This document shows, one piece after another, positions 31,742-57,751 of a stretch of DNA of 64,000 nt. The position numbers were made by a program, and so were the translations under genes. Origin of the DNA: an uncultured Gemmatimonadaceae bacterium (GTDB taxonomy: Bacteria > Gemmatimonadota > Gemmatimonadetes > Gemmatimonadales > Gemmatimonadaceae); NCBI GenBank assembly GCA_964637355.1, contig CAZWVG010000004.1, positions 1,517-65,516 on the forward strand, written 5' to 3'. The notes under the pieces were generated by a model that was not told where the DNA came from, did no database searches, and saw only the letters and a program-made list of their open reading frames with translations. Numbering within the stretch: the stretch's first letter is position 1; the number at the start of each line of letters is the position of its first letter.

Positions 31742-32320
31742 CTACTCCCGGTGCACGCTGCGAAAGTACGCGGCGAGATCGATCACGAGCGGTTCGCGTT
31801 CGGCATCGGGCTGCCACACGAGCGAGTCCACTAGGTTCTCCGGTTTATCGTCGCCAGGGCGCCATCGCTCTACGAGACGAGCAGCGGGATCGACGATCCA
31901 GTACTCTGGCACCGATTCGGATTGGTAGAGCGAACGCTTCTGGTGACGATCGACGTGCGCAGTAACTGGCGAGTCGACCTCAACCGCCAGAATCAGGCGA
32001 CCCACGTCCTCGAACCGTTCGGCGCCGCGACCGTTGATCGTTGGAATCACGAAGACGTCAGGCTCCACGCTTCGACTCGGTGAAAACGTCACCTCGGCAC
32101 GGGCCATCAGGCACTCGAGTGAGCACGAGCGAGCGTACGGGTGCAGCTGAAAGATCAGGTCACCCACTGCACGCTGGTGCAGCCACGACGGTGTCGGCGT
32201 TTCGAACAGCTCCCCGTCGATGACTTCGTAGCGCCGACCCTCGTCCGGGAGCGCGCGGACTTCCTCAATCGTCCAATCGCGGCGCTCGAAATCCGGTCGC
32301 AGGGGTGACGGCATGACCAT
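31742..32320 (-). CDS. Uma2-family (DUF820) restriction-endonuclease-like protein
   Basis: 'YEVIDGEL...PSWLHQ...EPDVFVIP...LAVEVDSP...KRSLYQSESVPEYWIVDP' is the canonical Uma2 layout. Confidence 0.8.
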   Translation of the reverse strand: MVMPSPLRPDFERRDWTIEEVRALPDEGRRYEVIDGELFETPTPSWLHQRAVGDLIFQLHPYARSCSLECLMARAEVTFSPSRSVEPDVFVIPTINGRGAERFEDVGRLILAVEVDSPVTAHVDRHQKRSLYQSESVPEYWIVDPAARLVERWRPGDDKPENLVDSLVWQPDAEREPLVIDLAAYFRSVHRE

Positions 32321-38125: not shown

Positions 38126-38833
38126 TCATTCAAAACCGGCAACAGGAAGAGCATTCAACTCTGCCCTCGCCTCGCGCCACGCGGGATAGTGCTCGCTCAA
38201 CAGCTCCACAAACCGCGCACTGTGCGTCGGTACCCTCAGGTGCACCATCTCGTGCACCACCACGTACTCCAGGAGATCCTTCGGCTTCTTCACCAGCTCG
38301 GTGTTGAGCCTGATGTGATGCGCAGCCGGGTTGCAGCTCCCCCACTTCGTCTTCATGCGCTGTAGGAAGTACCGCGACACACGAACCTTCAGGCGACTCT
38401 CCCACTTCTCGATCAGCGGTGGTACGGCGCGGTGCAGCAGCGCCTTGTGCCAGGCGTGCAGTACGGCAGCCCGTTTAGATCGATCGGCCTCCGGGCGGAC
38501 GGTAAGCGTGATGCGCCGGTGGTCGAGCGTCACGCTCGGCTGTTCGTCACGCTCGACGACCTTCAGGAGATATCGCTTTCCCCACACGTAGTGGCTCTCG
38601 CGCGTGACCAAGGCCCGCCGCGGCTCGCGCGCCTGCGCTCGGAGCTCCCTCCGGCGGGCGCGAATCCAGCCCAGCCGCGAGATCGCATACGCGCGCGCCA
38701 CTTCGAGACGCGTCGCGGTAGGCGCCACGAGAGTCACACGCCCTGTCGGCGGATGTACCGACAGGTGCACGTGTTTCACATCCTTCCGCGTCACCGCGAC
38801 CGAAATGTCGCCGAGACGGATTGTCTCGCTCAT
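38126..38833 (-). CDS. M48/DUF45 (YgjP-like, SprT-like) zinc metallopeptidase
   Basis: '[36 protein letters not shown]' contains HExxH. ATGA start/stop overlap with hsdR at 38830-38833. Confidence 0.85.
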
Positions 38834-41800: not shown

Positions 41801-41952
41801 CGCAGGATCCCCGCTTCGATGCCGCGGTTGTTCTCGCGTTTGCTCCAGTCGCCGAGGTAGCGGAAGCCGAGTGAGTCGGGGCGCGAATCGTTCGTGAAGA
41901 GCGCGACGACGCGGTCTTGTGTGCGACGTTCGGAGCGCGGCCTCTCACTCAT
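38830..41952 (-). CDS. hsdR: type I restriction enzyme R subunit
   Basis: N-terminal PD...ELK nuclease ('[22 protein letters not shown]'), SF2 motor '[10 protein letters not shown]' and '[10 protein letters not shown]', and a C-terminal helical domain. The ATG at 41952 overlaps the upstream TGA (ATGA). Confidence 0.95.
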
Positions 41953-43367
41953 CACAGAAGCTCCCAATGTCCGCCCTTTCGCGGGCCGACGAAGCGGAGC
42001 TTGCCGGCCTTGACTAGCTTCGCCGTGGCCCGTTCCACCGCGCTGAGCGACTTGCCCAATCTCGCGGCGACGGCCGCCAGCGTCAGTTCAGGGTCGGTCG
42101 CCAGTGCGGCGAGAATCTGTTCCGGCGTTTTCACCCGCCTGTTCACCGGCGTTTCTACCGGCGTTTCTACCGGCGTTTCTACCGGCGTTTCTACCGGCGC
42201 TATTCCGCCGCCCGCTTCCGCCTCCCTTGTACGCCTAACGACATTCGCGGCGTACGGGAAGGTGATCCACAGCCCGGATTCCTCGGTCAGGATCACGGGC
42301 GCCGGGAATCCTGCCTGTCGGCAGGCGGCGAACATGCGCTCGATCCCACGCCCCCACGCCTCGATCTCTCCGGCCCGGAAGAAAACGTTGGCGAGATCCG
42401 GATTGAACGGCTGGGAAGCGTGCTTCTTCTTCAGCTGCGCCACGGTCCATGCCGATGGCAACTGACCGGGGTTCCAGATCATGAGCTTGTCGGCGTACAC
42501 GCTGATCTGAACTGGTACGCCTGACGCGTAGTCCTTGTGGATGATTGCGTTCAGCACTGCTTCCCGAAGAGCCGCCTCGGGAACCGGCAAGGTCTCGACC
42601 CGCTGAATACCACGGTACGTGATCCCCGCCTTGAGATACTTGGTGAGCAGTAGGTCAATCGTCCCGCCCACCTGCGAGAATAGGTCGCCGTGGACCTCGT
42701 CGTGGTACAGCAGGTCGTCGTCAGTCCGGAAGTAGCCGATCTTCACGTACGCGCCGGTCACGAACTGCTCCGGCTCGGGGTGGAACGCCAGCACGGCCGC
42801 GCGCTTGAGATGCGTGCCCTCGCGCAGATGCAGCTTTTCGATCAGCCCGGTCGTCGTTTCCTTCAGGTCGGCGGCACTCATGCGCCGGCTCTGACGGGCC
42901 TTGGCTCGAAACGCCTCGATCGCAGCCTTGGACAGGGCGCGTACCGAGACACTCGGAACCGGAACACCGTCCCACGCACGCCCCTGCTTGCGCAGTAGGA
43001 ACTTGTCGAGTGCGGCCCCTTTGAGCTCCTGCTTCGTGCTCCCGCTGCGAAGATGGTACTCCCCCTTGTAGCTCACGGGGTAGGGATACGGCTCAACGCG
43101 GATCTCGATCAGGTCCTTCCCCGATGCGCGCACCAGGAGCACGTCGGCCATGATGCCGAGCACGTCGCGAATCTTGTTCGGTAGGTCGGCGAGTAGCTTC
43201 TTCGCGTCCGCCACCCCAACGGCTACTCCCTTGTCATTGCGCCCGATCACCAGCACGCCGCCCTCGGCGTTAGCGAACCCACAGAGCCAACGCAGGTACT
43301 CGTCGCGCCACGTCTCCTTCCATTCGACGTGTTGGGATTCCATGCGAGAGCGGCGCCGCTCAGGCAT
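41952..43367 (-). CDS. AlbA_2 (Schlafen-like) / HATPase_c_4 / wHTH protein
   Basis: '[11 protein letters not shown]...[17 protein letters not shown]' is the AlbA_2 N-terminus, 'LNAIIHKDY' the ATPase-like middle, and there is a C-terminal winged helix. Start at 43367 or 43343. Confidence 0.75.
42145..42200. repeat. 12-bp tandem repeat (ACCGGCGTTTCT x4 plus a partial unit) encoding (VETP)n
   Basis: Units at 42145, 42157, 42169 and 42181, then 8 nt of a fifth. It is in frame in the linker before the C-terminal wHTH of the AlbA_2 protein. Confidence 0.95.
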
Positions 43368-45324
43368 CGGCCACTTCTGCAAGCACCTCAGACTCTACAT
43401 ATCGCTTGAATGACGCGTCGTCGGTAAAGCAGCGAAAGCCTGCTTGGCTCGCAAGCGTCACGGTGGCGAGTTCCTCATTGAGGAGCACGACCACAGGCTG
43501 ACTGAGCTCTTCCTGCAGGCCGTTAGGCCAGGCAAGATCGAGGACCGCCAACTGTTCTCCGCTGTTGGAATCGGCCAACTCGAACGACATCACGCCGCGC
43601 GGTAGCCCGCACGATTCCACCCACTCATTCATCTCCTCGAGCGCTTCCTCCTCCTCTTCGCTGCTGATACCGCCGCGGACGGCGAGTGGTGTCGGAAGTG
43701 TCGCGGACGCGCCGGCGAGCCATCGTACATCACCGTGCAACAGTTCTTCCATGCGGCGATTGAGTTCGGCTGCCAACAGCACCTTGCGGGCCTCGAGGAA
43801 GTCCCGGAACCGCTCGATCTTCCAGAGCGCGGGATCATCCGGTATCCACTGCGAGGCGAGCGCACCCTTGTGCGCCGCCTCGACCTTCGGGAAGTAGTCT
43901 TCCGGGAGGCGATCGGTGATGCGCAGGTTGGTGTCCTTGGTCAGGAAGCAGAAGTTCGCGAGTGCGTTCACCTCTGCCCGCTTGTAGTTGCGCTTGTAGA
44001 GTTGAGCCTTCGGGAAGATGTGGTGTACCTCCAACCGACTCATCCTCCCCAGCAGACTCGCCTTGAGCGGGAGGCCAGTGCCCCAGTCACGCGATTCACC
44101 CATTCGCGTTAGCAGATAGAGCACCGGATAGAAGCGCGCGCCAAGGCTCCAGCCGGTAAAGTGGCCCGCTTCTGCGCGGAGGCCGCCGTGCCAGAGTCGT
44201 AGTTGTTCGAGCAGCTTGTCGAGGCCACCGTCTGCGCCCTCGAGCGCGGCAAGGTCCTGATCGATGAATGATTCCGTCGAGCCCGAGAAGCGCCCCCACA
44301 TCGCTGCCTGCACATACCAGAAGAGCAACTTGTCGCGCTCGTGCTCATTCATCGGGCCAAGCCGATTCGCCAGTCGCTGGTCGAGATAGCGCACCATCAC
44401 CGGCACGCCAAATCGTCCGAAGAAAACCTGGTCGTGGTCGAGCCCGAGCCGGCCGGCGATCAGATTCAGGCTGGTCTCGATGTGCCGCGTCGTGCGCGCG
44501 AGCGCCTCCTGTACCTCAGCCGCAGACTTCTCGTGGAGGTACAGAAACTTGGCCTCGCCGGTGAGCACAGTGTTCACCGACCGAAGCAACCAGTCGAGCG
44601 AGAAGTGGTAGTCGCTCTGCGCCCATGACTTGAGGGTGGTCTTCATCGTATCACGCCCCTCTGGCCAGTCGGCGCAGATCTTCGCGAGCGCAAGATCTCC
44701 CTTGGAGAGTTTGGTTCCCCCGCTGTTCACGCGGTTGAAGATGTCGACGACTACGTCGAGCGACTTGTCAGTCCCAGTGACCTCCTCGATGTGCAGATCC
44801 ACGTCGATGATTCCGAGCAGCCGGCTCAAGCGAGCGACGTAGTCGCCGACCTTGGCGGAGAGCTGCGGCTGCGCCGTTAGGCGCGTGACGAACAGTCCGA
44901 GTCCCGACGTACCTTGCGCCATCAGCTCCGTCACGTCGATCCAGCGCGGATCGTCCTTCATCTTCGCCGGCTGGTAGAACTCGAAGCGTTCGTCTTCCAG
45001 GTGGAAGCGAAGTCCGGTAAACGCCTTGGCGTTGCCGTCGAAGAAGCGCGGGGGCTTGCCGCGTACGACGCCGTAGAGCGACGTCATGCGCTGCTGTCCA
45101 TCGAGCAACAGCTTTACGATGCCGGCAGCCAACGGGCCGTCGCCGCGATGCGTGGCCGTCAAGGACTCGGTTGCCCACACGAGCAGTCCACCGACGGGAT
45201 GCCGGCGATAGAGCGAGTCGAAGAGTCCGCGAACCTGGTCGCGATTCCAGACGTAGCCACGCTGGAACTCGGGCAGTGCCATGTGGCCGCTGTCGATGTG
45301 GTCGAGGATGGTGGAGATCTTCAT
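43360..45324 (-). CDS. DUF262 (ParB-like NTPase) + His-Me/DUF1524-like nuclease, GmrSD/BrxU-type, with an extra ~150-aa C-terminal domain
   Basis: 'LPEFQRGYVWNRDQV', 'LLDGQQRMTSL' and later 'LEVHHIFPKAQLY...NALANFCFLTKDTN'. Confidence 0.8.
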   Translation of the reverse strand: MKISTILDHIDSGHMALPEFQRGYVWNRDQVRGLFDSLYRRHPVGGLLVWATESLTATHRGDGPLAAGIVKLLLDGQQRMTSLYGVVRGKPPRFFDGNAKAFTGLRFHLEDERFEFYQPAKMKDDPRWIDVTELMAQGTSGLGLFVTRLTAQPQLSAKVGDYVARLSRLLGIIDVDLHIEEVTGTDKSLDVVVDIFNRVNSGGTKLSKGDLALAKICADWPEGRDTMKTTLKSWAQSDYHFSLDWLLRSVNTVLTGEAKFLYLHEKSAAEVQEALARTTRHIETSLNLIAGRLGLDHDQVFFGRFGVPVMVRYLDQRLANRLGPMNEHERDKLLFWYVQAAMWGRFSGSTESFIDQDLAALEGADGGLDKLLEQLRLWHGGLRAEAGHFTGWSLGARFYPVLYLLTRMGESRDWGTGLPLKASLLGRMSRLEVHHIFPKAQLYKRNYKRAEVNALANFCFLTKDTNLRITDRLPEDYFPKVEAAHKGALASQWIPDDPALWKIERFRDFLEARKVLLAAELNRRMEELLHGDVRWLAGASATLPTPLAVRGGISSEEEEEALEEMNEWVESCGLPRGVMSFELADSNSGEQLAVLDLAWPNGLQEELSQPVVVLLNEELATVTLASQAGFRCFTDDASFKRYVESEVLAEVADA

Positions 45325-45334
45325 GGATGTCGAA

Positions 45335-46063
45335 TCATGTCGCGGTAACAGGAACCCAGATCCAACCTTCGCCCTGCGTCACCTCGTCCGGTGGTGGAAC
45401 AAGGAGCTCGCGCCGAGTATCGAAGAGGTGCGCGATCACGGCGCAGATGCGAGCGTCATCCTTATCATCGTGCCCCAGCGAGGGTTGGCCGCCGAGGACT
45501 GCGGTGACGGCCGGTGTGCTACGGCTGGCGGCGGGATACGTCTCGATCGCGCGAAACCCATCACCATCGGTCCAAATGCCGCAGCTCTCGACGTGTGGTG
45601 CGAACTTGGCCAGGACGTGCATCCCTTTCGTTGCCTGGCTTCCGATCATGTCCTTGACCGCCGACAACGGACTCTTGCCGCGCTCGAAGAGGTAGCGTTC
45701 GGTGTAGCGGAACAAGTAGCGATTCAGCCCCGACGTTTTGTGGGGCTCGACGTAGCCCTGCCGGGAGATCAGGCGCACGAACTCGATCGGGAAGCCGAGC
45801 GGTGTGTCGATCGCCATGGTGATGCGCGGCGGCACTGCGGGATAGGGCGCGCGGCACTTGGTGAAGAGTGCACGGAGCCAGTCGCTGATGCTGCGTGACG
45901 AGGCGATGCACTCACGCAGGTTGCCGCGCCAAGGTGTTCCGACGATGGCCAGACTCTCGTCGAGAATGACGATCGCATCGCGGCTCGCGCCGTTCTTGTC
46001 GCAATTCCAGCCGCCGACGTCCCAGCCGATGAAGAACGACGGTCGCTCGATCTCGTTCTTCAT
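45335..46063 (-). CDS. DUF429-like predicted RNase-H-fold nuclease
   Basis: 'FFIGWDVGGWNC' (first strand with Asp), 'AIETYPAAS', 'HDDKDDARICAVIAHLF'. The family call is from memory. ATGA overlap with the hsdS stop. Confidence 0.5.
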   Translation of the reverse strand: MKNEIERPSFFIGWDVGGWNCDKNGASRDAIVILDESLAIVGTPWRGNLRECIASSRSISDWLRALFTKCRAPYPAVPPRITMAIDTPLGFPIEFVRLISRQGYVEPHKTSGLNRYLFRYTERYLFERGKSPLSAVKDMIGSQATKGMHVLAKFAPHVESCGIWTDGDGFRAIETYPAASRSTPAVTAVLGGQPSLGHDDKDDARICAVIAHLFDTRRELLVPPPDEVTQGEGWIWVPVTAT

Positions 46064-47313
46064 ACCAGCCGAGTCTTCCCGGTGAGCAGCTCCTGCATCA
46101 TCCCCTGCTTGAGCCCGCGAGTCTTGTCGCGGCGGGCTTCGAGGGCAGCGATCTCCGCATCCATGTCCGTGAGCACCTCCGCGATCGCAACCTGCTCGGT
46201 CACCGACGGCAAACGCATCTCGACACTGGCCACGTGCGCCCGAGTCGTCGCGTACACCTTCGTCCCGGCGGCGAGTCGCCGGAGTTGAGAGGCAAACGCC
46301 GGGCAGAACTGAAGGAAGCCCTTGAAGCCATCGGCCAGCACCGACTTGTCGAATCGCGCGGCAATCGTGTGCAGTCCCGCCACGACCTCGGCGGAGCCCA
46401 CACCCTTCATCTCCACTGACTTGCTCACCCCGGCGACGTCCTCCGACGCATCCGCGATCACCAGGTCACCGTCCTGCAGACGCGCGAGGCGCGCGGCCTT
46501 CGCTTCCGGAAGGCATGGCAGCAAGCCCGGCGTCATGAAAGAGTCGCCGGCGGCGTGCACGTCACCGTAGTGGACGTCTCTGACTCTTCCCTCGGGGAGA
46601 AGCTCGGCGCGCGAGTTGACTCCATTCCGCAGAAACGTGACGTGGTCCCCCAACCGCCTCACCTCCCACTCCCCACCAAACCCCGGCAGCCGCGTCTTCC
46701 CGGTGAGCAGTTGCTGCATGGCCGCCTGCTTGAGATCGCGTTTCTTGGCGTTGAGCCGCTCCAGCCCGTCCAGCAGCGCATCCATATCGCTCAAGGCGGA
46801 GGCGATGGCGCGTTGCTCGGCGAAGGTCGGCGGAAGTGGGACCTGTATCGAACGCACCTGACTGAAGTTCAGTCCTTGTCGATTTCCTCCAGCTTGGAAG
46901 CTGTCAACTTGCCGCTGACCGCCGGATGAGAGAAGAAATTGGCAGAGGTACTGCGGATCCAAAGACTGAGCTGCTGTGCGGACGACGCACACGTGCTGAT
47001 TGACGTTGCCACCTTCGAGTCGGGCGTCGGCGACCGCGCAGCGACCGATCGAAGCACCGGTGATGTTTAGGAGGACGTCGCCACGTTGCAGCTCGGTGTC
47101 AGGGAAGGTCGCGTGCGTCGAATCGTCGATGAACGCAATGTCATCGAGCAACAAGACTCCCCACCCAACATTCTGACTTCGCACAAAAGGGCGACCCGCA
47201 TTCCTGTATACGCGTTGCCCGCCGCTCGGCGTAACCCCGCTACCAACCTTCACCGCGCGTTCGCCAATCGACTCGACTGTCCATTCTGCCGGAAGGATGC
47301 CGATGGCCGTCAT
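46060..47313 (-). CDS. hsdS: type I R-M specificity subunit with two target-recognition domains
   Basis: Central 'FAEQRAIASALSDMDALLDGLERLNAKKRDLKQAAMQQLLTGKTRLPGF' and C-terminal 'TEQVAIAEVLTDMDAEIAALEARRDKTRGLKQGMMQELLTGKTRL' conserved repeats. A 17-nt identical DNA repeat occurs at 46073 and 46694. ATG at 47313 (alternative GTG at 47337). Confidence 0.9.
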   Translation of the reverse strand: MTAIGILPAEWTVESIGERAVKVGSGVTPSGGQRVYRNAGRPFVRSQNVGWGVLLLDDIAFIDDSTHATFPDTELQRGDVLLNITGASIGRCAVADARLEGGNVNQHVCVVRTAAQSLDPQYLCQFLLSSGGQRQVDSFQAGGNRQGLNFSQVRSIQVPLPPTFAEQRAIASALSDMDALLDGLERLNAKKRDLKQAAMQQLLTGKTRLPGFGGEWEVRRLGDHVTFLRNGVNSRAELLPEGRVRDVHYGDVHAAGDSFMTPGLLPCLPEAKAARLARLQDGDLVIADASEDVAGVSKSVEMKGVGSAEVVAGLHTIAARFDKSVLADGFKGFLQFCPAFASQLRRLAAGTKVYATTRAHVASVEMRLPSVTEQVAIAEVLTDMDAEIAALEARRDKTRGLKQGMMQELLTGKTRLV

Positions 47314-47327
47314 CTTGTATCCCCGCT

Positions 47328-49748
47328 TCACCTCCACGCTGATCTCATCGACTTGAGGTGATCGTCAACCCGCACTGAATGCCCCGCCACGTTGTCGACG
47401 AGCGTTTGCAGCGGAGTCACGTATCGCTCCGCCAGCTCGCGAAGTCGACTGGTTAGTCTCTGAGACACACGATCCAGCTCCCCATTCACCTCAGCCGACA
47501 ACCGCGCCATCCACTTCTCGTCCACAACCAGCGTCTTCACCTCCCCCTCGGTCAGTGTCGGATACTTGTCATACGACAACCCGTCGAGCGCCGCCTCCAG
47601 CTCCCTCACCGCACGCTTGAGTGAGGCCTCACTCTCGGAGAGTTCCAGCCAGCGCTTCAGCACCGCCGCTTCGTCCTTCGCCTCCTTGTCGCCCTTGATC
47701 TCCTTCAACCGCGCGTTGACCTCCGCCTTGGCCACCTTGTCGAGCGCGCCGAAGTATCCCTCCTCGCCACCGTGCTCCTCCTCCATCTCGGCGAGTTCCG
47801 AGGTGAGTCCCTCCAGCGCCACCTGCATCGTCTCGACCGCCTCCTGCTCCTTCGCGAAGCACTGCGCGACGAGCAACGGCTTGGGAACCAGGTCGCACGC
47901 CCACCCCTTGTCCTTCCGCTTCCCCTTCTTGTCGGTCTCTACGATGCGCGCGGTGCGCGCCACCCAGCCGTCGGCGGCGATGAGGTAGCAGTCGTCCTGC
48001 ATCGTCTCGCCCCAGAAGTCCATCAGGTGCTGGTAGACGTCGTAGGAATCGAGCAGCGGTGCCCCCTTGAAGGCATCGAGCAGCCGCTCGGCGATGGACT
48101 CGATGAGCGTCCTGGGATGGCCCCCCTTGTCGAACGCCGTGAGCTGCAACGTGGCGTCGTGGCGCCAGCGGTCGAAGCGCTCGCGCGACAGCCGGTTGAA
48201 GGCGGCGAACTCCTCGTGCTCGAGGATGGCCTTCTTCACCTCGCCGATCGGGAGCCTGAGCTGCGAGTACCCCGGGCGTCCGGCCGACTCGAACAGCACC
48301 GCGCGCACGGACGGCAGCACTTCCCAGTAGGTGCCGAGTGCGTCAAGGTCGCGATTGGGGATCCCTCCGCGCAGGTGGCCCTCGATGTCCTGCAGGTCCT
48401 CCGGCTCGCTCGTGTCGACGTAGCGCGGGAGGTTGAGGTTGAAGTCGTTCTTCGCATCGGCGATCTCGTCCAGCGGCACCAGGCGCGCGTAGCGCGGAAC
48501 GTCTACCTGCTTGCGGAAAGTGTCGACGATGCGATGGATGTCCTGCTCGCGCAGCCGGTTCTTGTTCCCGTCCTTGATGAACCCCTTGCTCGCGTCAATC
48601 ATGAAAACGCCCTTGCGTGCCGCTGCGTTCTCCTTGTCGAGCACCAGAATGCAGGCGGGGATCCCCGTGCCGTAGAACAAGTTCGCCGGGAGCCCGATGA
48701 TTCCCTTGAGTATCCCGGAGCGCACCAGCTTCTCGCGGATCGCTGCCTCGGCGTTGCCGCGGAAGAGCACGCCGTGTGGAAGGATGCAGGCTCCTTTCCC
48801 TGCGCTCCTGAGGGAGCGGATGATGTGCAGCAGGAAGGCATAGTCTCCCTGCTTGGCCGGCGGCACTCCCCAGGCAAAGCGTTGCCATGGGTCGTTGTCA
48901 GGCGTTAGGCCAACGCTCCACGTCTTGACCGAGAACGGCGGATTGGCGACGACGTAGTCGTAGGTGCGCAGCTGCTCGCCGTCCTTGAACTTGGGCGCGG
49001 CAAGCGTGTTCCCCTGCTGGATGTTGGCCGTGGGGAAGTCGTGCAGGATCATGTTCATGCGCGCGAGACCGGCGGTGGTCACGTCCATCTCCTGCCCTTC
49101 CAGCGTGATGTGCTTTCCCGCCTGCGCGGCGACCTTGAGCAGCAGCGAGCCCGAGCCGCACGTCGGGTCGTACGCGGTCGTCGATGCCTTGGTGTTCTGC
49201 GCCGAGATACCGATCACCTGGGCGATCACGCGGCTCACCTCGGCCGGCGTGTAGAACTGCCCTTTGCTCTTGCCACTCTCGGTGGCGAAGTGGCGCATCA
49301 GATATTCGTAGGCGTCGCCGAGAATGTCGTCGTGGTCGGCGCGGTTCTGCGAGAAGTCGAGCTCCGGCTTCTCGAAGATCGCGATCAGATCCGACAGGCG
49401 ATCCACCATCGCCTTCCCTTCGCCCAGCTTGTTGGGATCGTTGAAGTCGGGAAAGTCGCTGCGCGCCAGCCGCTCGTTCGCCTCGATGAGGGGCTGGATG
49501 ACCTGCGTGTTGATCCTGTCGCCGATGTCGCTCCTTCCCTTGAGCGCCACCATGTCCGCGAAGCTCGAGCCCTTCGGGATGATGACGGGCGGCGCGAAGT
49601 CTCTGCTGTTCCCGTACTTGTCGCTGATGTACTTGATGAACAGCATGAACAGGACGTAGTCCTTGTACTGACTTGCATCCATGCCGCCGCGCAGCGCGTC
49701 ACACGACGCCCAGATGGAGGAGTAGAGATCGGACTTCTTTAGTGCCAT
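47328..49748 (-). CDS. hsdM: type I R-M N6-adenine DNA methyltransferase subunit, long form with a ~300-aa coiled-coil C-terminal extension
   Basis: HsdM N-domain 'LYSSIWASCDALRGGMDASQYKDYVLFMLFIKYISDKY', AdoMet 'AYDPTCGSGSLL', catalytic 'VVANPPFS'. Confidence 0.95.
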   Translation of the reverse strand: MALKKSDLYSSIWASCDALRGGMDASQYKDYVLFMLFIKYISDKYGNSRDFAPPVIIPKGSSFADMVALKGRSDIGDRINTQVIQPLIEANERLARSDFPDFNDPNKLGEGKAMVDRLSDLIAIFEKPELDFSQNRADHDDILGDAYEYLMRHFATESGKSKGQFYTPAEVSRVIAQVIGISAQNTKASTTAYDPTCGSGSLLLKVAAQAGKHITLEGQEMDVTTAGLARMNMILHDFPTANIQQGNTLAAPKFKDGEQLRTYDYVVANPPFSVKTWSVGLTPDNDPWQRFAWGVPPAKQGDYAFLLHIIRSLRSAGKGACILPHGVLFRGNAEAAIREKLVRSGILKGIIGLPANLFYGTGIPACILVLDKENAAARKGVFMIDASKGFIKDGNKNRLREQDIHRIVDTFRKQVDVPRYARLVPLDEIADAKNDFNLNLPRYVDTSEPEDLQDIEGHLRGGIPNRDLDALGTYWEVLPSVRAVLFESAGRPGYSQLRLPIGEVKKAILEHEEFAAFNRLSRERFDRWRHDATLQLTAFDKGGHPRTLIESIAERLLDAFKGAPLLDSYDVYQHLMDFWGETMQDDCYLIAADGWVARTARIVETDKKGKRKDKGWACDLVPKPLLVAQCFAKEQEAVETMQVALEGLTSELAEMEEEHGGEEGYFGALDKVAKAEVNARLKEIKGDKEAKDEAAVLKRWLELSESEASLKRAVRELEAALDGLSYDKYPTLTEGEVKTLVVDEKWMARLSAEVNGELDRVSQRLTSRLRELAERYVTPLQTLVDNVAGHSVRVDDHLKSMRSAWR

Positions 49749-49796
49749 TCGGTGAGTTGGGCTAAGTATTGCGTGCAGCGGGCGCCCGAATCGGGG

Positions 49797-50648
49797 TCAG
49801 GCGCTGGCTTGCGCGGCTTGCAGTTCGTTGAGTGTGCGGCCGTCCTTTGCTTTCCACGCGTCGCGTCCATTTGCACTGCGGCCGAGAATCACACCGGCGG
49901 CCGAACTTGGCGAGGGGAACACATAGTTCTGCGTGAAGACGTACCTGTCTTTTCCCGCCTTGAGTACGCCGTTCTCGGCGAGTGCAGCTCGCAGTTCGAC
50001 TATGTACGGATAACAGGACTTGACCTCGTCCAATGCGGCTTCGCTCCCTGTGAGGACGACGAAGCCCTCGGCGGTCTCGAATCCCCGTGCTGTCACGCCG
50101 CGTCCGCTCATCGAGAGTTCCGGCGCAGCGGGCGCCTGTAGCGCTACAGTCGAGAAGACGCCGAGTCCAAGGACCGGGAAGCACATCAGCGCTTCTTCGA
50201 GAAAGCCCTCAGCCTCCGCAGCGTCCGATTCGGATAGCGAGGGAAGGGCGGGGCGATTGCCGTTGTCGAGCGTGCAGCGCTTGGCTTTGTCAGCCAGGTC
50301 GACCAAGCGGGACTCGAGGAACTGAACGTGCGCCTTGTTGAGGTTCTCGTCCTTGCTGGTGAAGGCGAAGCAGGTCGTCCAGAAGTCCTTGTTCGCCGCG
50401 TGCTGCTCGAGCCGAGGGCGAATCGGATCGCCTTCTCCGACGTAGACGCGCGGTAGGCCGGACTCTTCGGGCGGGCCGACGAGGACGTAGACTCCAGTTC
50501 GCGTCATCTCCCGTCGGTGCCTCCCCTCCGGGAAGAGAGGGCGCGGTATCAGCAGCCCGGCGCCGCTCCAATTGGACTTCTCGATGATGCGGATCCCCTC
50601 GGGATCGCCGGCGGGGACGAAGATCTTGATGGTGTAGGGTCGCGGCAT
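49797..50648 (-). CDS. GIY-YIG nuclease-like protein with a DUF4357-type C-terminal domain
   Basis: 'TGVYVLVG...VYVGEGDPIRPRLEQH...' is GIY-YIG-like. C-terminal 'AEGFVVLTGSEA...' resembles DUF4357. It is the first gene of the minus-strand chain. Confidence 0.6.
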   Translation of the reverse strand: MPRPYTIKIFVPAGDPEGIRIIEKSNWSGAGLLIPRPLFPEGRHRREMTRTGVYVLVGPPEESGLPRVYVGEGDPIRPRLEQHAANKDFWTTCFAFTSKDENLNKAHVQFLESRLVDLADKAKRCTLDNGNRPALPSLSESDAAEAEGFLEEALMCFPVLGLGVFSTVALQAPAAPELSMSGRGVTARGFETAEGFVVLTGSEAALDEVKSCYPYIVELRAALAENGVLKAGKDRYVFTQNYVFPSPSSAAGVILGRSANGRDAWKAKDGRTLNELQAAQASA

Positions 50649-50982
50649 GACGATCACTCACCGCCGAAATGACAGCGGTCATCTGGGCATCGCCCGTGTG
50701 AGGCGCTCCGAGCTTGGCGCGGTTCGCGCTCGCATCGCGGCGTTGCTGTCACTTCTCCCCCACCCCCCTGTCTCCGCATCGCGCGCTCCGGTGACCAGCT
50801 CTCGGACGTCCGACCTGACCGAGCCACGATAACCACGGGTACCGACAGCGGCCAGAACCGTGGTTCCGGGGAATCGACCGAACTCCTCGGCACAAGCACC
50901 ACGCCTCTCCAGCGAACACGCTGCCGGAAGCGTGGCCGGTCGCGACGGCAAGGGAAACATCTGAGCTGGCGCAGAAACTATA

Positions 50983-51053
50983 CAGTACTTGCCATAGGAC
51001 AGTAAGTAGCACATAGTACTGTCAGTACTGCCATTAACACCTCACAGGACTGC
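50983..51053 (+). promoter_or_regulatory. array of four operator-like decamers in the AT-rich spacer upstream of 51057
   Basis: CAGTACTTGCC (50983), TAGTACTGTC (51014), CAGTACTGCC (51023), CAGGACTGCC (51044). Three contain the palindrome AGTACT. Spacings are 31, 9 and 21 bp. Confidence 0.5.
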
Positions 51054-51056
51054 CCA

Positions 51057-51632
51057 ATGGGAAAGATCTCAATCGACGTCGATCAGGAGGTGTTCGAGCA
51101 TCTGCAGGGACGCGCCACGCCGTTTGTCGACAGTCCCAACGATGTACTGCGCCGCCTTCTTCTGACGCCGCTACCCGAAGTTCCGGAGGCGTCGAGGACT
51201 CGACAGCGAGCTACCTCAGCTGAGCGACGTGCGGCGAGACACGGTGGCCCGGTGCCGGCCGACGCCTTCGTCTCGCGAGTGATTCATCAGGAGCTCGGCG
51301 AGGGCTTCAAACGCCGCCCGCCGTTCCGGATGATGTTCGAATCGAAAGACGCGCTGGCGTATTTCCAGAACTTCAACAAGGAGACGGATCATCTCTGGTA
51401 TCGGGTGACCCAGAATCCTTGGCGCGAACTCACGTCAGCGCGGAAGAAGGCATGGCTCTGCCTCAGCAACCCCGCCGAGGGTTACTGCTACGTGATCCCC
51501 GTTTCCGAAATCCAGGCGCAGGTGCAGCGCGCGCGCTGGAGCCGTCCGTATCTGGAGGTCAACATCGATCCGGCCACCTCACGCTGGACGGAACTCGATT
51601 GGCGGCTGGATCAGTATCTCGTTCGTGCCTAA
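51057..51632 (+). CDS. hypothetical protein with a SeqA-N/Arc-like ribbon-helix-helix N-terminus
   Basis: 'ISIDVDQEVFEHLQGRATPFVDSPNDVLRRLL' parallels the SeqA N-terminal pattern I.vD.e.y.yi....ges.sdiLRR.L. The C-terminal 110 aa are unassigned. Confidence 0.45.
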   Translation: MGKISIDVDQEVFEHLQGRATPFVDSPNDVLRRLLLTPLPEVPEASRTRQRATSAERRAARHGGPVPADAFVSRVIHQELGEGFKRRPPFRMMFESKDALAYFQNFNKETDHLWYRVTQNPWRELTSARKKAWLCLSNPAEGYCYVIPVSEIQAQVQRARWSRPYLEVNIDPATSRWTELDWRLDQYLVRA

Positions 51633-51717
51633 CAATAGTCTGCGAGAATTTCGGCGTCGTTGAGCGCTGACTGACTCGAGTGGCTCGCTGAGACGTCGAT
51701 CAACTTTCGACCAACTA

Positions 51718-53214
51718 ATGAACGCCAACCGCACCGAATCCATCAAAGAGCTGCTGTGCTCCGTGGCCGAGAATGATCCGACCTTCCCCACGGACGTCGA
51801 CGAGTTGGTGGAGCCTAACGCGGCGGCCGCCGAGATCGTCGGTGAAGGCGTCCGCAGCCGTGCGCGGCTAGTTTTGGACGTCGTAAACTGCATTCGTGCG
51901 AATGGCCTTCAGGCCAAGAAGCCTTCCCGTGTGCGTCTCTCAGGAGCACTTCGGCCGCTTGCCTCCAAGTCGCGCGAAACTGCGCATTTTGTTGAAGTCG
52001 TCGCCGCAATCGTCCGACATGCGCCGCAGGCACCGAGGCCGCAGCGCGTCGTTGCGACTCGCGCGGCTTCGAGTTTTCATCCGAACCGCAGGCGAGATGA
52101 CGACGGGCGAGCCGTCGGGGGCGTTCGCGCCTTCCTCTCCGTCTTCACGTTTCCAAGCGATCCGTGCTCGCTTCGCCTAGAGCCAGACGAGCACGGATTG
52201 TTCGAGACGCCGCTCGACCAGGTGCTCGCAGGCCCTTCAAACTGGTCGGCACCACGCTATGCGGAGGCGGGCGATGTGTGCTTCTTCTACTACTCGAAGC
52301 GATCACGTCAGAATGTGAAGCGCGTTCGGCGCCTTCTCGAACGCGAGGGCAGACTACACAGACGGCTTCGCCAGTTCATCGACCGCGCGGAGCTACAAGC
52401 GGAGCAGTACGCGGGACGGCTTGTTGCGTACTCCTTCGTGCTCGCGAAGGCGCACCGTGACGACAGACTCTCGAGCGAAGACTACGACTGGGGGAATCGA
52501 ATCTTGGCGCCGATGGGAAGTGTGTACGTGCTGCAGCAGTCGCTAGACCTCATGAGGTTTCGCGACACGCTGCCGTTTCCGCACGGTCAGACGATTGTTC
52601 CTTTGCAGCCGAGCGAGTTTGTACGGCTGATGGAAGCGCTGCGGTCGGAGGGGAATGACCTAGATCCACGCCTGCAACGCGCTTTGCCGGTAAGCGTGAG
52701 TCGTGAACTCATCACGTCGCAGAATTGGCGAAAGGTCGCCTGTAGCAAGGCGCATCGCTTCCTCAACGAGCAGGAAGTGCGTGGAGACTTCATCGACTAC
52801 TTCCTCGACGAGTTGCGCGATTTGCGAACCACGGTCGCGCGGGAAGTCGATTGTCGCACTGCCGGCCGCGTACTGGGTCGCGTGGACTACGTCGTACGAT
52901 TGCGGGGTCACGCTGTCCCCGTTGAGGCAAAGCTGAATGTGCGTGCTGAGCGAGATCTTCCGCGGCAGATGCGTCAGTATCTCGAAGCCGAGGAGTTCGT
53001 CGCGTGGAGGATGGGTCGTCCTGCTACTCTTCGTACGCCGTGGTCGAAGCTCGGGATCGTTGTGGATGTGGCGGGTTTGTACGTGCTCAACGAGGGTGGT
53101 TTCGTGGGTTGCACAAGTGATTCACCTGTCATTCGTCGTCTCGAAATCGGCGGTTTGAGTCGACCTGTGCTTCGAGCACGAATCGCGGGGGCGCTGCAAC
53201 TATTGGGAACCTAG
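51718..53214 (+). CDS. hypothetical 498-aa protein with a C-terminal PD-(D/E)xK nuclease motif and a possible PUA/EVE-like middle segment
   Basis: 'GRVDYVVRLRGHAVPVEAKLN' is a D...E-x-K core preceded by the acidic helix 'EQEVRGDFIDYFLDEL'. 'YAEAGDVCFFYYSKRS' resembles the GD..lfYhS strand of EVE/ASCH domains (weak). Confidence 0.45.
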   Translation: MNANRTESIKELLCSVAENDPTFPTDVDELVEPNAAAAEIVGEGVRSRARLVLDVVNCIRANGLQAKKPSRVRLSGALRPLASKSRETAHFVEVVAAIVRHAPQAPRPQRVVATRAASSFHPNRRRDDDGRAVGGVRAFLSVFTFPSDPCSLRLEPDEHGLFETPLDQVLAGPSNWSAPRYAEAGDVCFFYYSKRSRQNVKRVRRLLEREGRLHRRLRQFIDRAELQAEQYAGRLVAYSFVLAKAHRDDRLSSEDYDWGNRILAPMGSVYVLQQSLDLMRFRDTLPFPHGQTIVPLQPSEFVRLMEALRSEGNDLDPRLQRALPVSVSRELITSQNWRKVACSKAHRFLNEQEVRGDFIDYFLDELRDLRTTVAREVDCRTAGRVLGRVDYVVRLRGHAVPVEAKLNVRAERDLPRQMRQYLEAEEFVAWRMGRPATLRTPWSKLGIVVDVAGLYVLNEGGFVGCTSDSPVIRRLEIGGLSRPVLRARIAGALQLLGT

Positions 53215-53380
53215 CGCGGCAGGAGAGGGGCGCAGCGCGCGAAGTGGGCTCGGGAATGCTCCGCCATATTGGCAATTGAGCGTGTGGTTCCCCAAGCGCC
53301 GTGTTGCATCGAACGGCCAACAATCGTCCTCCCTTGCATGCGCGTCGATTCCTGTGACGCCACGGCACCCGGAGGACTCA

Positions 53381-54007
53381 ATGAAGGTGTGTCCATACTG
53401 CGCCGAAGACATCCAAGATGGCGCAATCATCTGCAAGCACTGCCGCTCTTCGCTGAAGGACTCGAATCAACGCAGCGGTGTAGCGCTGAGCTCGGCGATC
53501 TCGCCCAAAGCACCAGTTACGGTGAGGACACCGCTGGTTCTGGCCCTCGCACTGGCCGCGGTCGTCGCACTCGTTGTGATCATCGCGCGCCCCGCGCCGG
53601 ACGCTTCGCCGCCGCCCGCTGCGGTGATGACGGCGACTCCGCCGCGGCCTCCGAAAGTGTGGAATCTCGCCTCCATGTCGGACTTCGACGTAAGCGCCGG
53701 CAAGATCCTGAGTTTGGAGTGGGATGTCCCCGTCGACCAGCCGAACTGCCGCCTCACTGGACGCGTCGAGGTTACCGAGGGTGGCAGCAAAGACGTGCAG
53801 GTCTTCCTCACGTCGCGCGACGAGTTCACCAACCTCGAGAATGGGCACAACGCCAAGTCGTACCTGGCCACTGACAGAACCACGGTCGCGACGTTGGACG
53901 TGCGGGTGAATGAGCCGGGAGCGAAGGTGCTCGCGATCAGCAATGCCTTTTCGCTGCTCACGTCCAAGCACGTACAGATGCGGGATGTGAAGGCGGTCTG
54001 TACCTAA
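53381..54007 (+). CDS. zinc-ribbon / single-TM / extracytoplasmic beta-sandwich protein
   Basis: GGAGGA lies 4 nt upstream of the ATG at 53381. 'CPYCAEDIQDGAIICKHC' is followed by the TM helix 'LVLALALAAVVALVVII'. Confidence 0.6.
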   Translation: MKVCPYCAEDIQDGAIICKHCRSSLKDSNQRSGVALSSAISPKAPVTVRTPLVLALALAAVVALVVIIARPAPDASPPPAAVMTATPPRPPKVWNLASMSDFDVSAGKILSLEWDVPVDQPNCRLTGRVEVTEGGSKDVQVFLTSRDEFTNLENGHNAKSYLATDRTTVATLDVRVNEPGAKVLAISNAFSLLTSKHVQMRDVKAVCT

Positions 54008-54463
54008 CGCGGGGAACGCGCACCGTCGAGACGGCGCGCGCTCGCGTGCGATACTACCCTTGAGCGTCCTCAGGAGCTCATCCCGCACTCTGACCGCGGC
54101 GACATTCTCCGGCCTTCAGCAGGTGGCTCGGCTGCAAGGCGGAAAGCGGAGAATCGCCTTGACGGTTTAATTCAACCGCAGAAGCCGGCAACTCGTCGGA
54201 CGCGTCGATGCGACGCGAGTTTATCCGATTGCGATAAGATCGCAAAACTCGATCAAACTCACCGGCTCCCGATTCAGTCGGTTGCGGTTCGGAGCATCAC
54301 CTACCCGCCGCGCCCGGCGTGCTCAGCGCGCGCGGAGGAAGACTCGATGCCGGCTTGTGGCGCGAGCGGCAACGTCGTGGCGAGCGGATCGCACCTTCTT
54401 TTGCGAGTTCGTGTATCTCCGGGTTGCGTCCGTCAGTCCGACCAGCCCTCGCCGCCCCCGCCC

Positions 54464-55198
54464 GTGAACCTCAGAATCACGCTAGCCCTCCTAGCCCTTG
54501 CAGGCACAGATCTCCACGCCCAACTCGGCCATGGCGACGGCTTCCTCTTCCGCACCCCCACCTTCCGCCTCGCCCTCGCCGCCGGCTACGCCGCCCCCCG
54601 CGCCCAAAGCGACATCTACGACCTCCTCACCACCGAATTCACCCTCAACAAGTCCGACTTCGCCTCGGCCACCTTTAACCTCTCCGCCGGCGTCCACGTC
54701 ACCCCCCGCCTCGAAGTCGGCCTCAGCGGCTCCTGGGCCGGCCGCACCGCCGACTCCGAATCGCGCGACTTCATCGGCGAAGACAACCTCCCGGTCCTCC
54801 AGTCGACCACGCTCGACCGCACGACCATCATGGCCACCGCCCGCCTCTCCCTCCTCGAGCCGGGGCGCGCGATCGGGCGATACGCGTGGATCCCCAACCG
54901 GGTAGTCCCCTACATAGGCGGCGGGGCCGGCGCAGTCCGCTACTCGCTCCGGCAGAAGGGAGAGTTCGTCGACAAGGAGACGCTCGACATCTTCGCGGAC
55001 ACCTTCGAATCCTCCGGCTGGTCGCTCGGCGCCCTGGGGCTCGCCGGGACGGACATCTCGCTCTCCCCCCGTTTCGGGCTCACGCTCGAGGGGCGATATC
55101 TCCTGAGCCGCGCCACGATGAACGGCGACTTCAGTACGTTCAACAAGATCGACCTTTCGGGGTATGATGCCTCGCTCGGGTTGTTCGTCAGGTTCTGA
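54464..55198 (+). CDS. outer-membrane beta-barrel protein
   Basis: The GTG at 54464 gives the signal 'VNLRITLALLALAGTDLHAQ'. Alternating strands and terminal 'LGLFVRF'. Confidence 0.55.
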   Translation: MNLRITLALLALAGTDLHAQLGHGDGFLFRTPTFRLALAAGYAAPRAQSDIYDLLTTEFTLNKSDFASATFNLSAGVHVTPRLEVGLSGSWAGRTADSESRDFIGEDNLPVLQSTTLDRTTIMATARLSLLEPGRAIGRYAWIPNRVVPYIGGGAGAVRYSLRQKGEFVDKETLDIFADTFESSGWSLGALGLAGTDISLSPRFGLTLEGRYLLSRATMNGDFSTFNKIDLSGYDASLGLFVRF

Positions 55199-56417: not shown

Positions 56418-57407
56418 TCAGTCGGCAAAGTCTGGTTGCATCGCCTTGACCCGCGGCGTGAAGACGCGGGAGAACAACTCGACGTGCTCTCGAAGCCACG
56501 AGAAGTACTCCGGCCAGTTCGCGCGCTCCTGCAAATCTGCGGCACGGCGTACGTAGACCTTCGCCTGTCGGCTATCCGGCGGATTGTGCCAAGTGACCGC
56601 GACGCCGAGCGCCTTGTCGATCGCGCGTCGGTCCCTCTCCAGCGACCTGAAAAAGGCCTTCGCGTCGCGATGGTTCACGACCATCTCGACGCGAAGCTCA
56701 TTGGAGTCATAGGTCTCGAGCGCCGAGTCATAGAACGACGCGATGGAGCAGATCGTGAACCCCGAACGTCCGACTGCGTGTGGCATCCAGACGCGCGGAT
56801 ACGGCTTGGCGGCGCGAATCGATGAGGCTTTCTCGAGATACTCCTTGTACGCAGTCCAGAACTCGAGCTGAAGCGACCCCTTGGCGGAGAGCGCACTGCC
56901 GCCCTTTGAACTTCGTACGCGCTTCGACCAGTCGTTCGGCTTTGAGACAATATTGAATCGCGGGGCGACGGCCGAGGATCCGATTCGCCACAGCTCGACC
57001 TGAATGCCGAAGAAGTTGAAGTCTTCACCGGTGATCTCGTTCAACCAGTCGAGCGCCGCCCGATGCTCTTCGGTGAAGCGCGCCGAGATCCAGATAATGG
57101 TCGCGGCCTGAAGGCCGGCAGCATACGTGATCAGCTGCCCGAGATGCGTATGGTCTGTGCGCTCGAGCTGATTCTCGATCAGCACCCAGTTGTCGGTCCC
57201 CGTATCCTTGCAGAGCAGGTCGGCGCGGAATGGACCTACGTCGCGCTCCTGCTCTTCGAGTACGAGCGAGAGATCCAGCGTCTCACTGAGTAGCGCCAGA
57301 TTGGACTCCTCGGCAAGCCATGACGTGAAATGCCGCGCTTCGTGCTGCCAGATGCGTCGAAGGTCGACGGGTTCGAGGCGGGCGAGGGAGGAAGGAGACG
57401 TGGGCAT
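56418..57407 (-). CDS. PD-(D/E)xK (NucS-like) nuclease + DUF4268 protein
   Basis: 'RRIWQHEARHFTSWLAE...RADLLCKD...WVLIENQLERTDHTHLGQLITYAA...HRAALDWLN', then the DUF4268-like 'LEFWTAYKEYL'. ATG at 57407. Confidence 0.6.
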   Translation of the reverse strand: MPTSPSSLARLEPVDLRRIWQHEARHFTSWLAEESNLALLSETLDLSLVLEEQERDVGPFRADLLCKDTGTDNWVLIENQLERTDHTHLGQLITYAAGLQAATIIWISARFTEEHRAALDWLNEITGEDFNFFGIQVELWRIGSSAVAPRFNIVSKPNDWSKRVRSSKGGSALSAKGSLQLEFWTAYKEYLEKASSIRAAKPYPRVWMPHAVGRSGFTICSIASFYDSALETYDSNELRVEMVVNHRDAKAFFRSLERDRRAIDKALGVAVTWHNPPDSRQAKVYVRRAADLQERANWPEYFSWLREHVELFSRVFTPRVKAMQPDFAD

Positions 57408-57751
57408 TTCGCACTCGGAACGAATAGGAAGCGCTGCGATCCCAACAATGCGCCGGAGTGCGGGCGCTTCGCCAGCGAAATGCGGTGCAACGCTCTCGCG
57501 CCCCCTATGGCAGGTGACGTGCACGCATCGTTCGAGAGGCGTGAGCGCTGATCGAGCTGCGACAGCTAGAGATCAAAAGGCATACGCCTGGTCGACAGAC
57601 TTGCGTCATAGCCAGTATCTGACGCTCGCTAGACGGGCCCTGACGCGCCTGAGACGGGCTCGACGGATCAACTCCATCGCTGGAATAGCGCTGCGGAGCA
57701 GCGGTCACGAAGCCGCGCCGCACCCACCCAATACCGCGACGGAGAATTGAC

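Follow-up and report, generated by a model that had tools for sequence, protein, structure and literature searches.

Type IV restriction enzymes are usually regarded as unregulated single genes, and modification-dependent restriction enzymes are useful reagents for mapping DNA modifications. The reader domains of the PUA superfamily include EVE, SRA, ASCH and YTH. The controller (C) proteins of type II restriction–modification (R-M) systems are small Xre-type helix-turn-helix (HTH) binders encoded just upstream of the nuclease gene, which act on repeated boxes over their own promoter. In the passages of three papers that we draw on here, Bell, Wolf and Koonin (2020) count 'EVE-PD(D/E)XK phosphodiesterase' proteins among the putative type IV restriction endonucleases (PMC7641849), Lutz et al. 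(2019) screened PUA–nuclease fusions (PMC6765204), and the enzyme VcaM4I flips 5-methylcytosine or 5-hydroxymethylcytosine into its EVE pocket (PMC7897488). Here we analyse a stretch of 64,000 nucleotides (nt), hereafter the window, from an uncultured Gemmatimonadaceae bacterium (GCA_964637355.1, contig CAZWVG010000004.1, positions 1,517 to 65,516 of the forward strand), which carries a cassette of two co-oriented open reading frames (ORFs), gene 1, encoding 191 amino acids (aa), and gene 2, encoding 498 aa (Table 1). With moderate confidence we read this cassette as a modification-dependent restriction nuclease under the control of a SeqA-like autoregulator.

An earlier note on this DNA, prepared from the sequence by a model, had described both ORFs and quoted peptides from them, all of which are present as described, and had seen in gene 2 a segment reminiscent of EVE/ASCH readers of modified bases. 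The structural analysis agrees with the latter. An AlphaFold2 model of gene 2 built with 63 family members is confident over the core, with a predicted local distance difference test score (pLDDT) above 90, and of low confidence at aa 1-130. The EVE domain dominated the matches in the fold search, and the best PDB matches returned by Foldseek are the EVE proteins 2gbs (E 2.2e-4, probability 1.0), 2p5d and 2hd9, the EVE-protein matches spanning E 2.2e-4 to 1e-2; the EVE-HNH type IV enzyme VcaM4I (6yex), ASCH, YTH and the McrB N-domain are also among the top matches, and a viral structure library returned ASCH. The domain carries a GDxxFFY signature. Pfam EVE gave a weak match in 6 of 63 core-family members and none in gene 2 itself, and together with the PD-(D/E)xK families HSDR_N_2 and NucS_C it is the only Pfam family to recur among these 63. 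At the level of the modelled fold, gene 2 contains a PUA-superfamily reader.

The C-terminus of gene 2 is predicted to be a RecB/Cas4-type PD-(D/E)xK nuclease with an intact catalytic motif. Its motifs are E376, G-x-x-D390, E403-A-K405 and Q417-x-x-x-Y421, and the residues E376, D390, E403, K405, Q417 and Y421 show little or no variation in an alignment of 63 sequences sharing 20-56% identity with gene 2, so that the nuclease core previously recognised by eye is conserved at D390, E403 and K405. The modelled topology is alpha-beta-beta-beta-alpha-beta, and the weak hidden Markov model (HMM) matches to Cas4, HSDR_N_2 and NucS_C all fall within this domain. Moreover, the family profile places GxxD-(13)-ExK-(about 13)-QxxxY on motif II (GxxD), motif III (ExK) and the QhXXY motif of the Cas4 nuclease Pcal_0546 (4r5q) with matching spacing, and the equivalent Asp123, Glu136, Gln149 and Tyr153 of that protein are needed for nuclease activity (PMC4176176). 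Cas4 differs from gene 2 in having a four-cysteine Fe-S cluster and a CRISPR context, neither of which is seen here: the 63-sequence alignment has no invariant or nearly invariant cysteine, and C379 is nearly invariant only in a 14-sequence subset.

This layout is that of the VcaM4I/TspA15I EVE-HNH group and of the predicted EVE-PD(D/E)XK proteins, which like gene 2 have on one chain an EVE/PUA-like reader N-terminal to the nuclease. As far as the passages drawn on from PMC7897488, PMC7641849 and PMC6765204 go, the helical linker, the C-terminal nuclease, the lack of a methyltransferase and the location in defence islands are common to both; in all four lineages in which the cassette was found it consists of two genes only, and the one called L010 (homologous loci are given L numbers) has no methyltransferase adjacent. 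In contrast to the HNH nuclease of VcaM4I and TspA15I, that of gene 2 is of the RecB/Cas4-type PD-(D/E)xK kind; its EVE domain, unlike theirs, is too divergent for Pfam; and the clade of gene 2 has in addition a 105-aa N-domain and, encoded upstream, a SeqA_N-type partner, neither of which figures in the descriptions drawn from those three papers. The presence of an EVE-like reader and a PD-(D/E)xK nuclease on one chain supports the type IV-like reading given in the earlier note, while its assignment of gene 2 to no known family has to be revised, since the protein belongs to a large family whose EVE-PD(D/E)xK architecture is already catalogued, in the part cited, as putative type IV restriction (PMC7641849). 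The architecture is therefore not new; what is new within it is the family formed by the gene 2 core, which carries no annotation.

The extent of this family became apparent with an exhaustive search. A word-indexed search for homologues of gene 2 returned four proteins only and overlooked a 46%-identical orthologue, and when a profile of those four was used in an exhaustive HMMER search, 466 representative clusters (50% identity) matched it, 193 of them at E <= 1e-30, with members in Chloroflexota, Acidobacteriota, Planctomycetota, Gemmatimonadota and archaea. The module is thus far beyond chance, with 58 homologues of gene 1 in the protein database and the gene 2 core in 466 clusters. Nearly all members of the gene 2 family are 360-390 aa long and align just to gene 2 positions ~130-493; gene 2 therefore consists of a 360-aa conserved core and a clade-specific N-terminal addition. 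The first ~140 aa had been taken for low-complexity sequence, which they are not: aa 1-105 form a conserved domain with 30 invariant columns across the four orthologues, and a variable linker takes up aa ~106-134 only. A PDB profile search with this N-domain gave no significant match, and the idea that it descends from the small proteins encoded after gene 1 homologues at other loci was discarded after a test. We likewise rejected the possibility, raised as a refuting case in the earlier note, that gene 2 is a decayed fragment of an R-M enzyme: the ORF is intact, full-length and conserved.

The core family has no model in Pfam, NCBIfam or PADLOC. Single-sequence searches of both proteins against Pfam, NCBIfam, PHROGs, PADLOC and the PDB gave sub-threshold matches only, which for gene 2 included SWIB at aa 34-101 (E 0.02), and plasmid and phage collections held no match to gene 2. 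As expected from the earlier note, the cassette has no counterpart among the named defence systems of PADLOC-DB v2, gene 1 returning nothing, gene 2 a weak Cas4 match only, and 63 core members nothing consistent. Genomic context was taken from 20 genome loci of the core family, found via a 14-sequence alignment and drawn from Chloroflexota, Acidobacteriota, Planctomycetota, Actinomycetota, Lentisphaerota, Myxococcota (Polyangiaceae), Firmicutes and a methanogen. The gene directly preceding the core gene is often a defence gene, such as HsdR, a UvrD-like helicase, a BrxC-like ATPase, an SNF2 helicase or DruA, and at one locus the core gene adjoins an integrase. Two proteins of ~1100 aa (L033 8441-11737 and L034 1256-4543) fuse a SIR2_2 domain to the gene 2 core, and other long members bear TPR, DnaJ_C or AAA/STAND-like domains.

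These core fusions to TPR, SIR2 and AAA resemble sensor–effector proteins, the fold matches of the reader include YTH (an m6A RNA reader) and ASCH, and a PUA-domain system triggered by m6-dAMP has been reported (PMC12871103), all of which would fit an EVE-like domain that senses modified RNA or a free modified nucleotide, with the nuclease as an activated effector and not a classical type IV enzyme. We consider this very unlikely, as VcaM4I, which matches best at the level of whole enzymes, is an endonuclease dependent on DNA modification, the single chain of reader, linker and nuclease is the classic type IV layout in the passages cited (PMC6765204, PMC7641849), and the RecB/Cas4 motifs point to a DNA substrate.

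Gene 1 resembles SeqA, which acts in replication sequestration in E. coli. Profile searches indicate that, at the family level, its N-terminus is homologous to the SeqA N-domain: PF17206 is matched by 42 of 54 family members (best E 3.7e-8) and by gene 1 itself at E 0.005 (16.5 bits against a Pfam cut-off of 23), and the family profile matches E. coli SeqA in the PDB (3fmt, E 2.3e-4), so the SeqA-N-like start noticed by eye was rightly identified. The linker that follows is variable in the alignment, with pLDDT < 50 at aa 40-48. The C-domain (aa 67-191) had been called unrecognisable; it is modelled at pLDDT ~97 as a beta-rich, restriction-endonuclease-like fold, and its Foldseek matches are all PD-(D/E)xK proteins, namely SPARDA DREN (E 1.8e-3, probability 1.0), Hjc, RecU and MepB. 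A conserved acidic/lysine triad of the D...(D/E)xK kind was not found in the expected strands of this domain, whose invariant residues are Y102, N105, P139 and N169, and it is therefore probably non-catalytic, that is, a catalytically degenerate restriction-endonuclease fold. No SeqA C-domain was matched in Pfam, the PDB or NCBIfam beyond aa 57. Gene 1 would thus share the build of SeqA, with a domain for multimerisation, a flexible linker and a domain that reads sequence, and the target of both would be a short palindrome repeated at helical-turn spacings (for SeqA, PMC2691817). They differ in that SeqA reads hemimethylated GATC via SeqA_C, whereas gene 1 goes with an AGTACT motif and a C-domain modelled as a beta-rich restriction-endonuclease-like fold, and in that the gene 1 sites, unlike those of SeqA, cluster on the gene's own promoter.

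These sites correspond to repeats that the earlier note had placed at 50983-51053. They are real, and consist of three exact AGTACT boxes and one degenerate copy lying over and beyond a sigma-70-like promoter of gene 1 (Table 1). The arrangement of one box at the -35 element and another at a TATAGT hexamer recurs in L001, L005 and L010. All seven loci first examined, three of them without gene 2, carry two to four AGTACT boxes no more than 100 nt upstream of the gene 1 homologue, and the sole invariant block in the seven upstream regions is the AGTACTT core of one box (CAGTACTT or TAGTACTT). At 48 further metagenome loci AGTACT was the commonest upstream hexamer (present in 33), ahead of TTGACA. 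In the 33 non-redundant box-carrying loci it occurs at 16.7 per kb upstream against 0.145 per kb elsewhere in the same loci, a ~115-fold enrichment, and 39 of 45 inter-box spacings fall at helical-turn multiples (P = 3e-12). Where SeqA_N carries a different C-domain, just 3 of 23 loci have boxes; their presence therefore goes with the nuclease-fold domain and not with SeqA_N. On the simplest reading, the C-domain of gene 1 would read AGTACT, SeqA_N would multimerise the protein along one face of the DNA, and the result would be self-repression. The position of the boxes over the promoter, their phasing and their enrichment support the regulatory role on upstream repeats that had been proposed for gene 1.

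AGTACT is also the recognition site of ScaI (AGT^ACT). The restriction-endonuclease fold modelled for the C-domain and a conserved palindromic hexamer identical to this site could mean that gene 1 cuts or nicks DNA as an active enzyme of the ScaI kind, with the boxes as cleavage sites. We rejected this as extremely unlikely: the invariant residues lack the catalytic triad, solo gene 1 copies have no accompanying methyltransferase, RE_ScaI of Pfam gives no match even at E <= 1, and AGTACT is not avoided but over-represented in the window, with 12 sites against 2.9 expected from shuffles, none of 100 of which reached 12. Sites beyond the three of the promoter include those at 17724, 25334, 28387, 31900, 32522, 33770, 40290, 56504 and 60707.

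Besides the 58 homologues in the protein database, gene 1 has relatives at more than 100 metagenome loci; plasmid and phage collections held just two weak matches, on Rhodococcus plasmids. Solo copies lie among toxin–antitoxin genes, in a defence island or between housekeeping genes, and other homologues are followed at 0-73 nt by genes for unrelated small proteins or a UvrD helicase. With such varied downstream neighbours, gene 1 looks like a portable regulator with variable cargo. One family of ~130 aa lies 16-73 nt after gene 1 homologues (L039 6655-7086, L047 1012-1407, L048 4372-4755); its 'P..LRRGD..LIS' was aligned by hhalign to the EVE-like 'APR....GD' of gene 2 with a probability of 7.8% only; it could be a stand-alone PUA-like partner, as a lead only. 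A second, unrelated family of ~127 aa, 0-49 nt after gene 1 homologues (L057 1086-1502, L058 595-978, L064 6573-6965, L068 1004-1387), gives a weak cyanovirin-N match with its profile (E 0.0015).

Variants of the regulator itself were also seen. Gene 1 variants of ~300 aa have a C-terminal extension (L059-L061, L065, L067, L069, L070), none with an exact AGTACT box upstream, and in L060, L061 and L069 the extension includes a stretch that partly repeats the beginning of the nuclease-fold domain. Fusions of the SeqA_N-like domain to other C-domains occur too (L091-L114, for example L091 3787-4239 and L095 1912-2376), the commonest being a ~155-aa family with 'PAGTPKALEHILQV...DKYCRQL', and loci of this kind show different recurrent upstream words (GAAGTA, AAGTAT), suggesting another operator. 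A full-text search of the literature for SeqA_N-type proteins of the gene 1 kind found nothing; neither this family nor its operator appears to have been described before.

Gene 1 and gene 2 occur as a pair in four lineages: the window, L001/L003 (an uncultured Gemmatimonadaceae metagenome-assembled genome), L005 and L010. Gene order is the same in all four and the spacer measures 79-86 nt throughout, at protein identities of 69-73% for gene 1 and 46-63% for gene 2; the start codons of both genes in the window match those of the orthologues. Neither a terminator nor a promoter-like site was found in the spacer of the window, and the spacers hold no conserved RNA structure. The N-domain of gene 2 was seen only in the four paired orthologues and so correlates perfectly with the presence of gene 1; at the level of sequence comparison, this restriction to the paired clade is the strongest indication that the two genes may be directly linked in function. 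Outside this clade the picture is different. No gene 2 relative was found at 80 metagenome loci with gene 1 relatives (~55 full-length, the remainder sharing the SeqA_N domain alone), nor a gene 1 relative at the 20 gene 2-core loci outside the paired clade, so that the co-conserved neighbourhood anticipated in the earlier note is confined to one small clade and does not extend to the families in general.

The contexts of the pair also differ. The DUF4357/PDC-S14 gene next to the cassette is 71-95% identical between the window, L001 (8067-8918) and L005 (129-980), against just 24% for the adjacent HsdM; DUF4357 may move together with the cassette, or an exchange of the R-M genes may have taken place. 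In L010 the cassette abuts a MazG-like gene and, directly upstream, a 39-codon remnant (7623-7739) of a 197-aa gene that is intact in L001 (11864-12457), where it lies downstream of the pair and precedes a MazG-like gene; the remnant resembles a scar left by insertion or rearrangement and would mark the upstream boundary of the cassette. The cassette has moved between contexts. An extra 235-aa ORF with a GIY-YIG-like 'GIYVW...YVGEAG' motif, recognised by eye, lies between DUF4357 and gene 1 in L005 (1194-1901, - strand).

Since each family is found overwhelmingly without the other, solo gene 1 copies retain the AGTACT promoter, and synteny extends to DUF4357 in three of the four paired loci, the two genes could simply be travelling together, gene 2 as a type IV enzyme that needs no partner and has a promoter to itself, and gene 1 as an unrelated autoregulated DNA-binding protein, nucleoid-associated or selfish, that lies upstream by chance. 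This we judge unlikely. Order, orientation and the 79-86 nt spacer have been kept while gene 2 diverged to 46-63% identity, the pair also stands in the different context of L010 beside a truncated gene remnant, the N-domain of gene 2 tracks gene 1 perfectly, and a promoter-like site or terminator between the genes was not found.

A closer dependence, that of a toxin–antitoxin or abortive pair, is in our view more doubtful still. Here gene 1 would be a ribbon-helix-helix (RHH) antitoxin that binds and neutralises the nuclease encoded by gene 2 and represses the operon, and infection would free the nuclease to degrade host and phage DNA. Gene 1 is indeed like the RHH antitoxins of type II systems in its RHH-like N-terminus, its putatively autoregulated promoter and its position before a potentially toxic enzyme; the order of regulator and then nuclease fits, the N-domain found only in the paired clade could be a docking site, and VcaM4I without its EVE domain and linker is a toxic non-specific nuclease, according to the part cited of PMC7897488. 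However, the obligate co-occurrence expected of a type II toxin–antitoxin pair is missing at the 80 and 20 loci described above: hundreds of gene 2-core homologues exist, unlike an obligate toxin, with no gene 1 relative at the loci examined, and gene 1 homologues are mostly solo or precede unrelated small genes, so that the two families are not interdependent. The C-terminus of gene 1 is modelled as a folded nuclease-like domain and not the typical disordered toxin-binding tail, and the modified-base reader of gene 2 argues for direct discrimination of foreign DNA. Nothing found here supports the abortive system offered as an alternative in the earlier note.

We therefore return to a type IV-like nuclease under an autoregulator. 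A single autoregulated promoter would drive gene 1 and gene 2 as one operon, and the gene 1 protein, bound to the phased AGTACT boxes on one helical face over the -35 and -10 elements, would keep both itself and the nuclease low. Gene 2 would act as a stand-alone enzyme: its EVE/PUA-like domain would flip a modified base of incoming DNA into its pocket, and the RecB/Cas4-type PD-(D/E)xK domain would then cut the DNA, no methyltransferase being needed. The helical N-domain might, we speculate, contact the gene 1 protein or auto-inhibit the nuclease. Such control of a potentially toxic nuclease would resemble that by the controller protein in R-M systems. Gene 1 appears functionally analogous to the C proteins of type II systems, as a small binder encoded upstream with boxes on its own promoter; the C proteins differ in being Xre-type HTH proteins of methyltransferase-dependent systems, whereas gene 1 has another fold, is mostly without a nuclease partner and here stands beside a type IV-like enzyme. 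The coupling of a type IV-like enzyme to a SeqA_N-type regulator would be a new variation on a known theme and not a new principle.

Several observations count against this reading. About one third of the gene 1 homologues have no exact AGTACT boxes, and binding of AGTACT by the gene 1 protein is suggested by their co-occurrence only. Most homologues of each gene occur without the other, so the functional link is drawn from four related lineages, and as three of these share DUF4357, part of their synteny may reflect common descent. The fold matches of the gene 1 C-domain are modest (E ~2e-3, template modelling scores of 0.3-0.48). Foldseek with the nuclease domain of gene 2 alone gave no significant match (best PD-(D/E)XK E 0.79, RecB exonuclease E 1.6), and its assignment therefore comes from motifs, topology and convergent weak matches. 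Finally, the single-sequence Cas4 matches at aa 339-413 are below cut-off (TIGR00372 E 0.08, 12.7 bits against 65; PADLOC Cas4 E 0.002); with scores so low and the Fe-S cysteines not conserved, we speak of a RecB/Cas4-type domain and not of Cas4. Each of the rival readings for its part conflicts with at least one observation.

A more far-reaching view of gene 1, unlikely in our estimate, would make it the founder of a SeqA-like class of oligomeric DNA readers, in which an inert nuclease-fold domain senses AGTACT phased on one helical face, possibly including its methylation state, and gates the nuclease both through promoter occupancy and by docking onto the N-domain of gene 2. The pair would then be a genuine two-component system, with a controller that senses state and a type IV effector, and the same controller would serve other small cargo genes elsewhere.

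Table 1. Features of the cassette, its promoter and the neighbouring genes (positions in the window).
Feature	Positions	Strand	Basis or remark
AGTACT box 1	50984-50989		abuts and overlaps the -35-like hexamer (AGTACTTGCCA); invariant block across seven upstream regions
Gene 1 promoter, sigma-70-like, TTGCCA-17 nt-CATAGT	50989-51017	+	
AGTACT box 2	51015-51020		overlaps the -10-like hexamer; 31 nt from box 1
AGTACT box 3	51024-51029		9 nt from box 2
Degenerate box copy AGGACT	51046-51051		22 nt beyond box 3
Gene 1 (191 aa), predicted AGTACT-box binder and autoregulator	51057-51632	+	
Gene 1 aa 4-36, SeqA_N-like (ribbon-helix-helix-like) multimerisation domain	51066-51164	+	PF17206, PDB SeqA
Gene 1 aa 37-66, variable linker	51165-51254	+	mostly low confidence; one short helix modelled at aa 54-60
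Gene 1 aa 67-191, PD-(D/E)xK-like fold domain, probable AGTACT reader	51255-51629	+	model, Foldseek
Gene 1-gene 2 spacer, 85 nt	51633-51717	+	
Gene 2 (498 aa), predicted modification-dependent (type IV-like) restriction endonuclease	51718-53214	+	
Gene 2 aa 1-105, conserved helical N-domain, paired clade only	51718-52032	+	weak SWIB hints are the sole matches
Gene 2 aa 106-134, variable basic Pro-rich (Arg/Pro/Ala-rich) linker	52033-52119	+	
Gene 2 aa 135-296, EVE/PUA-like modified-base reader	52120-52605	+	Foldseek; signature W176...GD186xxFFY191
Gene 2 aa 297-345, helical inter-domain linker	52606-52752	+	predicted model
Gene 2 aa 346-498, RecB/Cas4-type PD-(D/E)xK nuclease domain	52753-53211	+	motifs, topology, profile alignment
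DUF4357/PDC-S14	49797-50657	-	minus-strand chain
HsdM	47328-49748	-	minus-strand chain
HsdS	46060-47337	-	minus-strand chain
PDC-S44	45335-46063	-	minus-strand chain
GmrSD	43360-45324	-	minus-strand chain
AlbA_2/HATPase_c_4/wHTH protein	41952-43382	-	minus-strand chain
HsdR	38830-41967	-	minus-strand chain
YgjP	38126-38833	-	minus-strand chain
HNH	37067-38014	-	minus-strand chain
UDG-like gene	36310-37074	-	minus-strand chain
Uma2	31742-32320		lower-GC island
PDC-S11/DUF4268 gene	56418-57524		lower-GC island

The cassette lies inside a lower-GC island crowded with defence genes (window 31000-62000), together with a type I R-M system, GmrSD, PDC-S14, PDC-S44 and PDC-S11; over ~31-62 kb the GC content drops to 0.60-0.65, against ~0.68. 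The lower third-position GC content previously estimated by eye was confirmed by count, at 0.72 for gene 1 and 0.67 for gene 2 against 0.80-0.87 in typical host genes. The pair faces away from the minus-strand DUF4357-HsdM-HsdS chain, as had been described, across a gap of ~400 nt (50658-51056). The proposal that the cassette and the R-M operon are controlled jointly from this gap was rejected: nothing shows such sharing, and within the gap the boxes are on the gene 1 promoter only. The type I R-M operon is itself broken up by three accessory defence genes. No tRNA was found in the window, and no known RNA family in 49000-55000.

If the favoured reading is correct, a sizeable unannotated family (466 clusters at 50% identity), missed by defence catalogues, would join the modification-dependent restriction enzymes, and in the cassette described here a type IV enzyme would stand under a dedicated autoregulator. 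To our knowledge, the SeqA N-domain is known almost only from replication control in gamma-proteobacteria; it would then be a general multimerisation module, combined in many phyla with different DNA-reading domains, and with phased AGTACT boxes as its operator here.

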